Below are positions 13,621-30,716 of a stretch of 32,731 bases of DNA, in pieces. The stretch is taken from contig MGQS01000032.1 in NCBI GenBank assembly GCA_001797905.1, forward strand, positions 1 through 32,731, read 5' to 3'. This stretch comes from Deltaproteobacteria bacterium RBG_16_54_11 (GTDB lineage: Bacteria > Desulfobacterota > B13-G15 > RBG-16-54-18). The notes beneath the pieces were generated by a model, which saw only the letters and a list, made by a program, of their open reading frames with translations, searched no databases and was not told the origin of the DNA. Position 1 is the first letter of the stretch. Each line of letters starts with the position of its first letter. A program made the translations under genes and the position numbers.

Positions 13621-13651
13621 ACAAAAAAAGGGCGCCTTGTAAGACGCCCTT
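13621..13651 (-). terminator. Intrinsic terminator (also a candidate attenuator) about 35 nt upstream of mvhD
   Basis: Minus strand reads AAGGGCGUC-uuacaa-GGCGCCCUU followed by UUUUUGU. The stem is 9 bp with one G.U pair. Confidence 0.75.
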
Positions 13652-13662
13652 GTCAATCCGCT

Positions 13663-13678
13663 GACACTTCCTTGTGCC
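13663..13678 (-). promoter_or_regulatory. Leader hairpin P1, GGCAC-AAGGAA-GUGUC (hexaloop with A1 and G4)
   Basis: 5-bp stem with one G.U pair. It starts about 8 nt after the -10 element. A paralogous hairpin lies at 15452-15467. Confidence 0.5.
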
Positions 13679-13686
13679 TTTTTATA

Positions 13687-13715
13687 ATAGTATGCCTTTA
13701 CAAACCGTCTGTCAA
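13687..13715 (-). promoter_or_regulatory. Sigma-70-type promoter TTGACA-17nt-TACTAT
   Basis: Minus strand: TTGACA at 13715-13710 and TACTAT at 13692-13687. It sits between the stop of the 529-aa gene and the terminator. Confidence 0.5.
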
Positions 13716-13740: not shown

Positions 13741-15330
13741 TTATTCGGCCAGGATCTTTTCCGCCTCTTGCCGATAGGCATCCATCACATAGGCGATGCC
13801 GGAGATCTTTGCCGCCTCCTCGGTCAGGGCCATGAGGTCCTTGCGGGAGACGAGGGAGAGCTTAAAGTTCCTGCTCCCCGCCATCAACTGCTGGAGCCCG
13901 ACCCTGATCTTCTGGCAGAAGGTATAGACACCCATCGCGCCGAGGGGTATATCCTTCATCCGATTCCCATACTTCCCTTTCAGCTCTTCATAGGTGACGA
14001 AGATCTCCTCGACGCTCTTTCCGTATTTGGCAACGCCCTTCGGCAGGTCATTCTCCGCCAGCCACTGTCCGATATGCTTCCCCACCATGCCGGGGATCAT
14101 GAGGGCCCGACCCATGCAGACCGCCTTGACATAGGGGCTCCCCATGGCGATGGCCTTGAACACCCCGTCTTCGCCCGAGAATCCACCGGCCATGGCGAGG
14201 TCAGGCACCCTGATCTTTCGCTTGGCGAGCTTCTCACAGAACTGATAGGCAAGGCAGTGGAGGTAGAACGACGGGATGCCCCACTCGTTCATCATCGGCC
14301 ACGGGCTCATCCCCGTGCCGCCGGGGGCGCCGTCGATGGTAAGGAGATCCAAGTGCGCCTCCGCCCCATACCGCAACGCCATGGCGAGCTCCACGGCGGA
14401 GTAGGCGCCGGTCTTCAGGGTGATCCGCTTAAACCCGAGCTTGCGCAGCCTCTCGATCTCCTTCAGAAACCCATCCTTATCCACAAAACCCAGTCGAGAA
14501 TGCCGCTCGAATTCCTTGATCTCCCCTTCCTTGAAGGCCTTCTGGACCTCAGGGATGATGGGATCCGGGGTGACAATGTACCCCCGTTTTTTGAGCTCCA
14601 GGGCCCGCTCGATCTCTCTGACCTTGATCTCACCGCCGATGCACTTGGCGCCCTGCCCCCACTTGAGCTCAATGGTATCGAGCTTGTGCTTGTTCAGGAC
14701 GTATTCCGCCACGCCAAAGCGCGTATCCTCGACATTCATTTGCACGAGGATCTCACCAAAACCCTCGTGGAACCTCCGGTATGTCTCGATCCGGCGATCC
14801 ATCTCGGGCGAGTTCTTGACCTTCCCGTTGTTGTCCAGCTCCAACTTGGGGTCGATACCGCAGACGTTCTCGCCGCACACGAGGGTGATCCCCGAGATAG
14901 CGGCGCCGATGGCAAAGTGCTCCCAGTTCTTCTGGGCGATGAAGGTGGAACCCAATGCGCCGGTAAAGACAGGCACGCGCATCCGGACCTTTTTATCCCA
15001 CCCATACTCCGTCTCGGTATCGACAACAGGAAAAATGGCCGTGTCAGGGCCCGGTTTCACCCCATCGGGCAATCCTTCTGCGCCGACGGCGTACCCCTGG
15101 ATGTTCAGGTGGGAATAATCCACCGGATATTCCTTGTCCGCCCCTGCCGTGATCTCCCCGAATGGCCCCGGATAGATCACCTCCCTGCCCCGGAATGAGG
15201 CGAGCCACACCTCACAACCACCCTTACACCCGTCAAGACAGTCGGTGCAGATACCGGACATGGGAACGACCGTTCTCGAACGGTTGAACGTCCCCGTTGC
15301 CGCACTGGCATTTGGCCTTCTTAAATTCAT
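13741..15330 (-). CDS. FMN-binding glutamate-synthase-family protein (stand-alone GltB domain-2 homologue)
   Basis: ..LKWGQGAKCIGGEIKV.., ..TIDGAPGGTGMSPWP.., ..AMAGGFSGEDGVFKAIAMGS... N-terminal Cys cluster CTDCLDGCKGGCEVW. I prefer ATG 15330 (GAGGAGG 7 nt upstream) over the track's 15456, whose extension runs through the terminator. Confidence 0.8.
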   Translation of the reverse strand: MNLRRPNASAATGTFNRSRTVVPMSGICTDCLDGCKGGCEVWLASFRGREVIYPGPFGEITAGADKEYPVDYSHLNIQGYAVGAEGLPDGVKPGPDTAIFPVVDTETEYGWDKKVRMRVPVFTGALGSTFIAQKNWEHFAIGAAISGITLVCGENVCGIDPKLELDNNGKVKNSPEMDRRIETYRRFHEGFGEILVQMNVEDTRFGVAEYVLNKHKLDTIELKWGQGAKCIGGEIKVREIERALELKKRGYIVTPDPIIPEVQKAFKEGEIKEFERHSRLGFVDKDGFLKEIERLRKLGFKRITLKTGAYSAVELAMALRYGAEAHLDLLTIDGAPGGTGMSPWPMMNEWGIPSFYLHCLAYQFCEKLAKRKIRVPDLAMAGGFSGEDGVFKAIAMGSPYVKAVCMGRALMIPGMVGKHIGQWLAENDLPKGVAKYGKSVEEIFVTYEELKGKYGNRMKDIPLGAMGVYTFCQKIRVGLQQLMAGSRNFKLSLVSRKDLMALTEEAAKISGIAYVMDAYRQEAEKILAE

Positions 15331-15467: not shown

Positions 15468-15474
15468 TCGGATT

Positions 15475-15670: not shown

Positions 15671-15820
15671 AGGGGGAAAACAGGGCGTAAAAGCTCCTGC
15701 GTTGGCGCCAGCCGGCGCTGTGGTTCAGGAACCCCCCTAAAACCCCATAGCCTGTACCGTGTTTTCCCCCTTTAAATGGAAATTAAGGGCCGTCCCTGAG
15801 GACGGCCCTTAGTCCTTTCG
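15671..15820 (+). ncRNA. Candidate structured small RNA or cis-regulatory RNA of unknown family
   Basis: It begins at the predicted transcription start. GGGGGAAAACA (15672-15682) pairs with UGUUUUCCCCC (15760-15770), closing a ~100-nt domain. Inner helices are UCCUG/CAGGA and GCGCC-agcc-GGCGC. An 11-bp hairpin AAGGGCCGUCC-cuga-GGACGGCCCUU follows at 15785-15810. No credible ORF is present. Confidence 0.4.
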
Positions 15821-16055
15821 GTAACCCGACAAAGAACTATGGTGAAAGCCTCGTATGCACCTTTTCATCCAGGGCCCCCCTTCTCCCGCCGTCCGTCATT
15901 GGGCACCATGCACCGGATATCCTATCCTCTAAGGCCTGCTCATAATACGCAGCAACGAGTACAAGTACTTGAATCCTGAGGGAGTACATGGTATCTTCCC
16001 AGAGGTGAGAGAATAACCCTTCATGGCTTGGGCTATAGGATAGGAAATCGCGTCA

Positions 16056-16835
16056 ATGAAGATCGCCATTGCGGGCAAGGGCGGGGTGGGAAAGACCACC
16101 CTCGCCGGGGTGATGGCTCGGTATTTAGCCGAGGAGGGATACAAGGTCCTGACCATCGATGCCGACCCTGATGCCAACCTCGCCTCAGCCCTGGGATTCC
16201 CCCCGGAACTCCTCAAGGGGGTCACCCCCCTGGCGGAGATGACCCCGCTGGTGGAGGAGAGAACCGGGGCTAAAAAAGGAACCTTCAGCGGGGTCTTCAG
16301 GCTGAACCCCAAGGTCGACGATATCCCGGACACCTACAGCGTGACCCACCACGGGGTAAAGCTCCTCACCGTGGGGAGCATCCCCCAGGCCGAGGGCGGG
16401 TGTTTTTGTCCGGAGAACATTCTGCTCAAGGGGTTGCTCCACCATATCCTGGTCAAGAGGGACGAGATGGTCATCATCGATATGGAGGCAGGCCTGGAGC
16501 ACCTCACCCGGGGGAGCACCAAACACGTCGATGCCTTCATCATCGTGGTGGAACCGGGGCAGCGGAGCATCTCCACGGCCAAGCAGATCCGGAGGTTGGC
16601 CCTGGATCTGGGGGTGCAGAAGGTGTACGGCGTGGGGAACAAGGTGACCTCTCCGGAGGACCGGGCGTTGATCGAGAAGGGGTTGAGCGAGCTATCGTTC
16701 TTGGGGCACCTTTCCTTTAATCAGAAGGTGATAGAGGCCGACAAGCAGGGGATCTCCCCTTATGACCTGGACGGGGCCATAAAAAAAGAGGTACAAGAGA
16801 TCGTCAAGCGATTACAAGGAGAACCAAGTGCTTAG
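16056..16835 (+). CDS. cooC: CooC/AcsF-type P-loop NTPase (nickel-insertion accessory protein family; MinD/ParA superfamily)
   Basis: Deviant Walker A IAIAGKGGVGKTT. The CXC motif in ..AEGGCFCPEN.. is typical of CooC. 259 aa. Confidence 0.7.
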   Translation: MKIAIAGKGGVGKTTLAGVMARYLAEEGYKVLTIDADPDANLASALGFPPELLKGVTPLAEMTPLVEERTGAKKGTFSGVFRLNPKVDDIPDTYSVTHHGVKLLTVGSIPQAEGGCFCPENILLKGLLHHILVKRDEMVIIDMEAGLEHLTRGSTKHVDAFIIVVEPGQRSISTAKQIRRLALDLGVQKVYGVGNKVTSPEDRALIEKGLSELSFLGHLSFNQKVIEADKQGISPYDLDGAIKKEVQEIVKRLQGEPSA

Positions 16836-29661: not shown

Positions 29662-29883
29662 ATGCCCTCTTTCGGTAGTCTCGGAAAGTTCCTCATTATC
29701 TTTGGCATATGCCTCGCGGTGATAGGGTTAATTCTGATCCTCGGAGATAAGATCCCCTGGATCGGGAGACTTCCCGGTGATATCTATATCAAGCGTGATA
29801 AGTTCACCTTCTACTTCCCCCTCATGACCAGCATCATCATCAGCCTCCTGCTGACCCTCCTCTTTGCCCTCTTCAGAAAATAA
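29662..29883 (+). CDS. DUF2905-family small membrane protein
   Basis: 73 aa with two transmembrane helices. ..WIGRLPGDIYIKRDKFTFYFPLMTSIIISL.. matches the DUF2905 signature. Confidence 0.75.
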   Translation: MPSFGSLGKFLIIFGICLAVIGLILILGDKIPWIGRLPGDIYIKRDKFTFYFPLMTSIIISLLLTLLFALFRK

Positions 29884-30542: not shown

Positions 30543-30716
30543 ATGAGCAAATCCCAACCGCGTTACATAGTAGATGAAAGCGGCAACAAAACCGCAGTAG
30601 TGATACCTGTCGAGGAATATGAAGATCTTCTAGAGGATGTGCATGACCTCGCCATTATTGCTGAACGTAAAAACGAATCCACCATAAGCTTTGATGAGTT
30701 AAAGAAGCGTGTGTAA
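30543..30716 (+). CDS. Putative type II antitoxin (Phd/YefM- or RelB-like), 57 aa, with no cognate toxin gene
   Basis: Absent from the ORF track (<60 aa). RBS GGAAGGAGGG lies 5-6 nt upstream of ATG 30543. Translation: MSKSQPRYIVDESGNKTAVVIPVEEYEDLLEDVHDLAIIAERKNESTISFDELKKRV*. The ..AVVIPVEEYEDLLEDxxDL.. pattern is characteristic of antitoxin N-terminal domains. Confidence 0.6.
   Translation: MSKSQPRYIVDESGNKTAVVIPVEEYEDLLEDVHDLAIIAERKNESTISFDELKKRV

Follow-up and report, generated by a model that had tools for sequence, protein, structure and literature searches.

The 95-base segment that precedes an mvhD-like gene on contig MGQS01000032.1 of Deltaproteobacteria bacterium RBG_16_54_11 is very probably a sigma-70-type promoter followed by an ANTAR-type transcription attenuator of about 60 nucleotides (nt). 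Two tandem hairpins with six-nucleotide loops (hexaloops), P1 and P2, are followed by an intrinsic terminator into which P2 extends. Computational analysis established the anatomy of this leader and its conservation, and showed that it matches ANTAR substrates from the literature, that an ANTAR gene is present and that such genes are linked to the motif. Positions given below are those of the 32,731-nt window, i.e. the whole stretch of DNA analysed, and the elements of the leader were read directly from its minus strand. The mechanism itself is known: ANTAR attenuators at nitrogen genes have been described since 2010–2012, and leaders of glutamine synthetase (GS) and glutamate synthase (GOGAT) genes were predicted in 2012. 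What is new is the link to a GAF-ANTAR protein and the operon controlled.

Architecture of the leader and proposed mechanism

The promoter, P1, P2, terminator, ribosome-binding site (RBS) and mvhD start codon that the original prediction had read from the letters were all recovered at their predicted positions by minus-strand reading, folding and a consensus scan (Table 1), and both hexaloops carry the A at position 1 (A1) and the G at position 4 (G4) that had been claimed for them. The consensus scan detected the leader promoter (10/12) and the terminator (10 pairs), and transcription would start near 13681–13679. In DNA letters, the terminator stem pairs AAGGGCGTC(T) at 13651–13642 with (A)GGCGCCCTT at 13637–13628; with 10 pairs (six of them G-C), a 4-nt loop and a run of seven U residues directly after it (T7 at 13629–13623), it has the characteristics of an intrinsic terminator. 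The minimum-energy fold obtained with RNAfold comprises P1 and the terminator (−30.8 kcal/mol, z = −3.06). P2 shares its 3′ part with the 5′ arm of the terminator, so that only one of the two can form at a time. Folded by itself, P2 reaches −1.9 kcal/mol, whereas the terminator reaches about −16 to −18 kcal/mol. As P2 is so much the weaker of the two, termination would be the default outcome and read-through would need a stabilising protein.

We propose that transcription begins a few bases ahead of P1 and that, by default, the nascent RNA would fold as P1 plus the strong terminator, so that RNA polymerase would halt before mvhD. An active ANTAR-domain protein would bind the hexaloop of P1 first and that of P2 second, with G4 as the base-specific contact, and would keep the weak 3-bp P2 closed, thereby sequestering the 5′ arm of the terminator. 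The polymerase could then read on into the operon of mvhD, metV/metF-like and glutamate-synthase-like genes. The most likely regulator would be a 242-residue GAF-ANTAR protein encoded in the same nitrogen-assimilation neighbourhood.

A promoter-like sequence, CTGACA-16-TATAAT (11/12), is also present on the plus strand at 13661–13688, antisense to the leader and overlapping P1 and the −10 region. It probably arises because that region is AT-rich and P1 is palindromic.

Resemblance to published ANTAR substrates

The published consensus of ANTAR substrates consists of P1 SYAC-AAHGRH-GUDB and P2 RRGY-AAHGDV-GCYY, the latter overlapping a terminator (Ramesh et al. 2012, PMC3369931). P1 of the window fits this consensus, and it is almost identical to P1 of the Pelobacter carbinolicus site reported in the same study, GACAC-AACGGC-GUGUC...GGC-AACGAC-GCC. 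In the structure of EutV bound to RNA, G4 is the only base contacted specifically, and P1 serves to recruit the protein (Walshe et al. 2022, PMC8934654). The weakness of P2 here, and the stabilising protein that read-through would need, agree with this model of EutV action.

A scan with a dual-hexaloop covariance model, the check that the original prediction had suggested, placed the leader at the top of the window. The model, R1, was built from 29 published sequences only (Ramesh et al. 2012, Fig. S2) and was roughly calibrated. Run with filters off on both strands, it ranked positions 13679–13643 first (15.3 bits, E 0.015) and positions 15468–15420 second (15.2 bits, E 0.016); the latter belong to a further leader, which lies before a gene of 529 codons. 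When R1 was applied to 561 kb of mvhD loci, its top eight matches were all mvhD leaders. Rfam returned nothing at gathering thresholds over the whole window, and at E≤10 the leader gave only weak, terminator-driven matches to small RNA (sRNA) families and none to an ANTAR-target family. The leader combines the features by which an ANTAR target is recognised, namely tandem stem-loops, hexaloops, A1 and G4, the overlap of P2 with a terminator, the covariance-model match and an ANTAR gene on a 99.6%-identical contig.

Conservation among relatives

We surveyed one genome per species and found the mvhD operon in 73 metagenome-assembled genomes of Thermodesulfobacteriota, Nitrospirota, Leptospirales and Spirochaetes. 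The same arrangement of promoter, P1, P2 and terminator precedes mvhD in 29 of the 73. A perfect TTGACA stands at the equivalent place in every one of these 29 leaders, as does a TAnnnT hexamer 17–18 nt past it, which ends about 4–22 nt before P1. The P1 loop has six nucleotides in all 29 leaders and the P2 loop in 25, with a 5-nt loop in the remaining four; G4 is present throughout, in both loops. The CAC/GUG core of P1 is invariant among the 29, and the GAC/GUC stem of P2, together with its G4, is nearly so across 66 family members. A terminator overlaps P2 in all 29, and within it the pair that includes position 5 of the P2 loop covaries (G-C in 15 leaders, A-U in 10, G-U in 2). The linker (4–22 nt) is not conserved in sequence, and the terminator loop and the other loop positions vary. 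Close relatives (L161, L162, L044 and L001) retain the structural elements while other positions drift.

Other leaders were seen in the same survey. Several Nitrospirota (L005, L010, L016–L018, L022, L043 and others) have a different conserved leader about 60–160 nt upstream of mvhD, with a TTGACA promoter, a hairpin ACGGCA-AACGGU-UACCGU whose hexaloop has A1 and G4, and a terminator GCGUCUAUGCC...GGUAUAGACGC followed by a U-run; it has no canonical P2, and R1 gives no match to it. In Syntrophorhabdia-like genomes, amtB-glnK is preceded by two tandem dual-hairpin/terminator units (Table 1), which are absent before amtB of the window.

A GAF-ANTAR protein as candidate regulator

A Pfam scan of the main open reading frames (ORFs) and a six-frame motif scan found no ANTAR gene in the window, as had been predicted. 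The six-frame scan for the ANTAR signature was equally negative for the 73 mvhD loci, so that the 4 kb around the leader do not encode the regulator. A 133-kb metagenomic contig, Ga0214473_10000085, carries a gene for exactly the same GlnK protein as the window, and the two sequences are 99.6% identical over the 13.1 kb that were compared. This contig encodes a 242-residue protein with a GAF and an ANTAR domain (Pfam E 2e-21 and 1.7e-21, respectively). On the contig the genes follow in the order asd, GAF-ANTAR, an OmpR-like gene (Trans_reg_C), glnA, a GATase gene, amtB, glnK and glnD. Together with the covariance model, the conservation in 29 genomes and the linkage of motif and gene described below, the ANTAR gene on this near-identical contig bears out the original reading of the segment as an ANTAR-like dual-hexaloop antitermination leader.

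The ANTAR domain of the 242-residue protein aligns with those of EutV, Rv1626, NasR, PAL and AmiR. The protein has a GAF and not a REC domain, and the best matches of this GAF domain are those of PtsP (EI-Ntr), as judged from structures 3ci6 (E 8.5e-17) and 3trc and from NCBIfam PRK11061 PtsP (3e-23), and it also resembles the GAF domain of NifA. The GAF domains of PtsP and NifA sense glutamine and/or 2-oxoglutarate, and the resemblance to these sensors of nitrogen status points to the same molecules as the input. By this analogy the ligand might be glutamine or 2-oxoglutarate, an assignment that we regard as tentative.

Conservation of the protein is high (more than 7000 homologues at E≤1e-10), and synteny is unchanged in a lineage whose GAF-ANTAR protein is 89% identical. 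Where the homologues are about 70–75% identical, a TTGACA promoter lies directly 3′ of the GAF-ANTAR gene and is followed by one or two tandem leader units of the form AAUAC-RANGNN-GUAUU..GAC-RARGGC-GUC plus terminator. The next gene, where identifiable, is usually a homologue of the 529-codon gene of the window (as at locus L080, for instance). Of the 38 R1 matches in 80 metagenomic loci that contain GAF-ANTAR homologues, 29 fell 60–300 nt past the ANTAR stop codon on the same strand, a zone that makes up about 2% of the sequence searched. Guilt by association is strong here, though it is not proof, and suggests that the GAF-ANTAR protein recognises the leader family that includes both leaders of the window. 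We consider it probable that this protein is the cognate regulator of the mvhD leader.

Weighing the evidence and the alternatives

Several observations weigh against this interpretation. The E-values given by R1 are modest (0.015) and their calibration is rough. As many as 44 of the 73 operon-bearing genomes have no such leader, and A1 is not strict among those that do: it is found in 21 of the 29 P1 loops (G in the other eight) and in 15 of 25 P2 hexaloops (non-A in 10). The P1 and P2 stems of the mvhD set alone are conserved in sequence and covary weakly. The outer pairs of P1 do covary over 66 family members (e.g. U-A 39 versus C-G 25; none of 500 shuffles reached the observed score), but the 39 members added for this test had been pre-selected for pairing, and the covariation of the larger set is mostly a difference between two clades. 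In the lineage of the window, the GAF-ANTAR gene lies about 20 kb from the leader, and the gene that adjoins it is the OmpR-like one, which has no leader. Finally, five points are inferences: where transcription starts, whether a protein binds, which protein this is, what it senses and in which direction the response runs.

The hairpin could in principle be a mere intrinsic terminator of the 529-codon gene, with an unregulated promoter before or after it and with P1 and P2 as incidental small hairpins. It does lie 90 nt past the stop codon of that gene, at 13741, and a descriptor demanding P1 of at least 4 bp, P2 of at least 3 bp, G4 hexaloops and an overlapping terminator is satisfied by chance 0.75 times per dinucleotide-shuffled window. 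When A1 is also demanded in both loops, the figure falls to 0.01 (1 of 100 shuffles). The pattern in a single sequence is only modestly unlikely, and it owes its significance mainly to conservation and to the result of the covariance model. In 29 genomes P1, P2, the size of the hexaloops and G4 are kept, whereas the linker and the loop of the terminator drift; in most of these genomes the upstream gene is a different one (e.g. a class-I GATase), yet promoter and leader persist; and R1, trained on unrelated ANTAR sites from the literature, singles out exactly these sites. A simple terminator is consequently very improbable. We give still less credit to a leader that senses something other than an ANTAR protein, be it as a small-molecule riboswitch, through CsrA at the P1 loop, or as a terminated RNA of about 60 nt serving as a trans-acting sRNA or protein sponge. 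The P1 loop AAGGAA does hold a CsrA-like GGA, a weak partial match to RsmV spans P1, and the ANTAR-hairpin RNAs EutX and Rli55 of Enterococcus and Listeria act as sponges (PMC8934654). However, no Rfam family matches at its gathering score or with a convincing E-value, an RNA of about 60 nt is too short to hold a known aptamer, and a sponge role would supplement attenuation rather than replace it. The CsrA site was rejected, as GGA is not conserved among relatives (ATAGAA, AGTGAA, AATGGC, etc.) whereas G4 is.

A further alternative accepts the attenuator and assigns it to another ANTAR protein encoded elsewhere in the genome, for instance a kinase-fed REC-ANTAR protein similar to GnfR. Such proteins may exist, as our view of this genome covers only about 40 kb. 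In Geobacter, GnfK/GnfR serves the leaders of nif, glnK and amtB, its regulator genes are unlinked to their targets, and its P2, GGC-AANGGC-GCC, is very close to GAC-AAGGGC-GUC; moreover, ANTAR domains are believed to lack specialisation by architecture (PMC7496416). In at least 24 loci, however, a GAF-ANTAR homologue is directly followed by a leader with the same P2 and then by a homologue of the 529-codon gene. The promoters here are of the sigma-70 type and not of the RpoN type, and no REC-ANTAR gene was seen in any of the loci examined. We therefore regard another ANTAR regulator as unlikely, although less so than the two preceding alternatives, and retain the GAF-ANTAR protein as the preferred candidate.

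Comparison with known ANTAR systems

The proposed mechanism is the one used by EutV, NasR, AmiR and GnfR. The leaders of eutP, eutG, eutS and eutA of Enterococcus faecalis, controlled by EutV/EutW, are the defining ANTAR substrates (PMC3369931; PMC8934654). They share with the present leader the tandem A1/G4 hexaloop hairpins, the P1 core YAC...GUR, a short linker and a P2 whose 3′ half lies inside the terminator, as well as the occurrence of several attenuators in series along one locus. The eut system differs in its phosphorylated REC-ANTAR regulator, its role in ethanolamine use, its AT-rich Firmicutes hosts and its P2, which is RGC-AAHGDV-GCY rather than GAC-AAGGGC-GUC.

Closer in taxonomy and function is the GnfK/GnfR antitermination at the nifH, nifEN, glnK and amtB leaders of Geobacter sulfurreducens (Ueki and Lovley 2010, PMC2995071), which likewise concerns nitrogen-assimilation genes of the former Deltaproteobacteria and a P2 that overlaps the terminator. 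The conserved Geobacter sequence CAGGCAANGGCGCC (GGC-AANGGC-GCC) has almost the same P2 loop as the AAGGGC found here, with a compensated change in the stem. Its counterpart in the window, UUGACAAGGGCGUC, agrees with it in CAA-GGCG-C and in loop register; it differs in its stem, GAC/GUC instead of GGC/GCC, and in lacking the 5′ CAGG. GnfR targets have RpoN −24/−12 promoters activated by GnfM, and their regulator is a REC-ANTAR protein (PMC2995071), whereas all 29 mvhD leaders have TTGACA-17/18-TAnnnT and the linked regulator is a GAF-ANTAR protein. No RpoN-type TGGCAC-N5-TTGC was seen upstream of the leader, and the GOGAT-like operon is not among the reported GnfR targets. The likeness to GnfR that the original prediction had drawn consequently holds for the mechanism and fails for the promoter and the linked regulator.

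ANTAR substrates are typical of nitrogen-metabolism genes, including those of glutamate synthase (PMC3369931). They have been predicted before GS and GOGAT(-like) genes of Desulforudis, Carboxydothermus and Desulfotomaculum (Ramesh et al. 2012, Table S2, Fig. 9, PMC3369931). These Firmicutes sites have the same motif and the same GS/GOGAT theme, and their regulator gene often adjoins the first leader; they differ in being assigned to response-regulator ANTAR proteins, none involves an mvhD-metVF-linked operon or a GAF-ANTAR protein, and all are predictions. The NasR/nasF leader of Klebsiella oxytoca resembles the present system in its one-component sensor-ANTAR protein, dual-hairpin leader, nitrogen-assimilation operon and ordinary promoter, and its P2, GGAU-AAAGGC-GUCC, resembles P2 here. 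NasR nevertheless carries a NIT sensor for nitrate/nitrite rather than a GAF domain, and P1 of nasF is GC-rich and atypical. NasR and PAL were the only characterised one-component ANTAR proteins as of 2020; GAF-ANTAR proteins form a large one-component subclass, of which the same paper lists no characterised member (PMC7496416). Our search of the literature on GAF-ANTAR proteins yielded passing mentions and no characterised example.

A second leader in the same gene string

The ANTAR leader before mvhD that had originally been predicted is real in our analysis but is one of two in the same minus-strand gene string. The second precedes the 529-codon, Glu_synthase-like gene, has a weak −10 hexamer and a non-canonical P2 that can be drawn in two ways (Table 1), and has homologues at L001:1112–1171 and L002:795–855. 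Its terminator was missed by the terminator scan and was verified by folding. It is an attenuator of the same family, and the gene string carries two checkpoints.

Upstream of the second leader, on the minus strand at 15811–15784, lies a strong 12-bp hairpin, TAAGGGCCGUCC-UCAG-GGACGGCCCUUA, without a clean U-tract. This hairpin probably terminates the minus-strand gene ahead of it (15929–16333).

The downstream operon and its gene context

The plus strand of the window carries amtB, glnK and glnD, to which the long minus-strand gene string is convergent. The original prediction named the first gene behind the leader mvhD, and its product is indeed a PF02662 protein. The operon itself is neither a hydrogenase nor an Hdr operon: an MvhD-MetV-MetF-like cluster is followed by glutamate-synthase-like genes. 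The last two genes jointly hold the three domains of the glutamate synthase large subunit; the leader would therefore control a GOGAT-like operon and not a hydrogenase. The gene order of the mvhD operon is kept in the 73 species-level genomes, which span several phyla, and the operon often lies just downstream of amtB-glnK. No description of an MvhD/MetV/GltB cluster was found in the searchable literature. Its product may be a glutamate synthase in which the module for electron input is unusual.

Table 1. Positions of the leader elements, operon genes and related features (window coordinates unless a locus is named)
Feature	Position	Strand	Remarks
−35 hexamer TTGACA	13715–13710	minus	sequence reading and consensus scan
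−10 hexamer TACTAT	13692–13687	minus	17-nt spacer to −35
P1 hairpin GGCAC-AAGGAA-GUGUC	13678–13663	minus	5 bp, hexaloop with A1 and G4; begins 8 nt past −10; putative recruitment hairpin
P1 5′ strand GGCAC	13678–13674	minus	
P1 loop AAGGAA	13673–13668	minus	
P1 3′ strand GTGTC	13667–13663	minus	
P1–P2 linker AGCGGAUU	13662–13655	minus	8 nt
P2 hairpin GAC-AAGGGC-GUC	13654–13643	minus	3 bp, hexaloop with A1 and G4; putative antiterminator hairpin
P2 5′ strand GAC	13654–13652	minus	
P2 loop AAGGGC	13651–13646	minus	
P2 3′ strand GTC	13645–13643	minus	
Intrinsic terminator AAGGGCGUCU-UACA-AGGCGCCCUU + U7	13651–13621	minus	5′ arm = P2 loop and P2 3′ strand
RBS GGAGAGG	13600–13594	minus	
mvhD ATG	13588–13586	minus	ORF = PF02662 FlpD/MvhD protein (Pfam)
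Second leader	15503–15412	minus	precedes 529-residue Glu_synthase-like gene, ATG 15330
Second leader, −35 TTGACA	15503–15498	minus	
Second leader, −10 TAGAGG	15480–15475	minus	weak
Second leader, P1 GGCAC-AAAGGG-GUGUC	15467–15452	minus	
Second leader, P2 option 1 GACGC-AGAAAAUG-GCGUC	15449–15432	minus	non-canonical
Second leader, P2 option 2 hexaloop AAUGGC	15440–15435	minus	non-canonical; closed by just 2 bp
Second leader, terminator AUGGCGUCC-AAAG-GGACGCCAU + U7	15439–15418	minus	9 bp
529-residue Glu_synthase-like gene	15330–13741	minus	Pfam; between the two leaders
mvhD-like	13588–13142	minus	Pfam, NCBIfam
MetV-like (DUF5981)	13129–12461	minus	Pfam, NCBIfam
MTHFR-like	12464–11541	minus	Pfam, NCBIfam
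Fer4/Glu_synthase-like	11527–10145	minus	Pfam, NCBIfam
Fer4 + GltB FMN domain	10141–8624	minus	Pfam, NCBIfam
GATase + GXGXG	8560–5912	minus	Pfam, NCBIfam
Regulated operon as a whole	13588–5912	minus	
GAF-ANTAR gene	L074:127–855 (Ga0214473_10000085)		about 6.4 kb outside the window, to the left of position 1
Tandem amtB units	L004:308–418, L011:143–258, L038:1092–1200, L039:1234–1340, L056:58–179		P2 AAC-GAUGGC-GUU or GCC-AUUGAU-GGC

In the lineage of the window, no ANTAR leader was found before amtB or glnA, either with R1 (filters off) or by eye. A direct repeat, TGYAAY-N5-YGTAAC, with an 11-nt period occurs only upstream of these two genes, at 1427–1454 for amtB and at L074 4452–4468 for glnA; about 0.01–0.02 occurrences would be expected, a statistic biased by the derivation of the pattern from the same sites. 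The repeat may serve as operator for the OmpR/GlnR-like regulator whose gene adjoins the GAF-ANTAR gene, and amtB and glnA seem to use a DNA operator instead of an attenuator in the same genome. Elsewhere in the window, the 1.4 kb between 29630 and 31037 contain small ORFs only and no tRNA or Rfam match; by eye and without a family scan, 29662–29883 resembles a small membrane protein and 30543–30716 an antitoxin of the Phd/YefM type.

Biological implications

It is quite possible, if somewhat short of probable, that these leaders represent the first regulon of the GAF-ANTAR subclass, in which a one-component sensor reading nitrogen status (glutamine and/or 2-oxoglutarate) directly with a PtsP/NifA-like GAF domain would act through serial antitermination at the constitutive sigma-70 promoters of an undescribed MvhD-MetVF-linked glutamate-synthase complex. 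If this is true, the complex controlled in this way would be widespread in anaerobic Thermodesulfobacteriota and related phyla. The nitrogen-linked regulation argues that the operon, whose biochemistry is undescribed, encodes an assimilatory glutamate synthase that receives its electrons through an unusual input module. For GAF-ANTAR proteins, the locus supplies a conserved RNA target together with a genetically linked candidate regulator, and the question of the ligand is directly testable with the 242-residue protein and the 60-nt RNA. Uncultured Thermodesulfobacteriota of sediments and groundwater would regulate a GOGAT-like operon after transcription initiation, from a strong promoter of the constitutive type.

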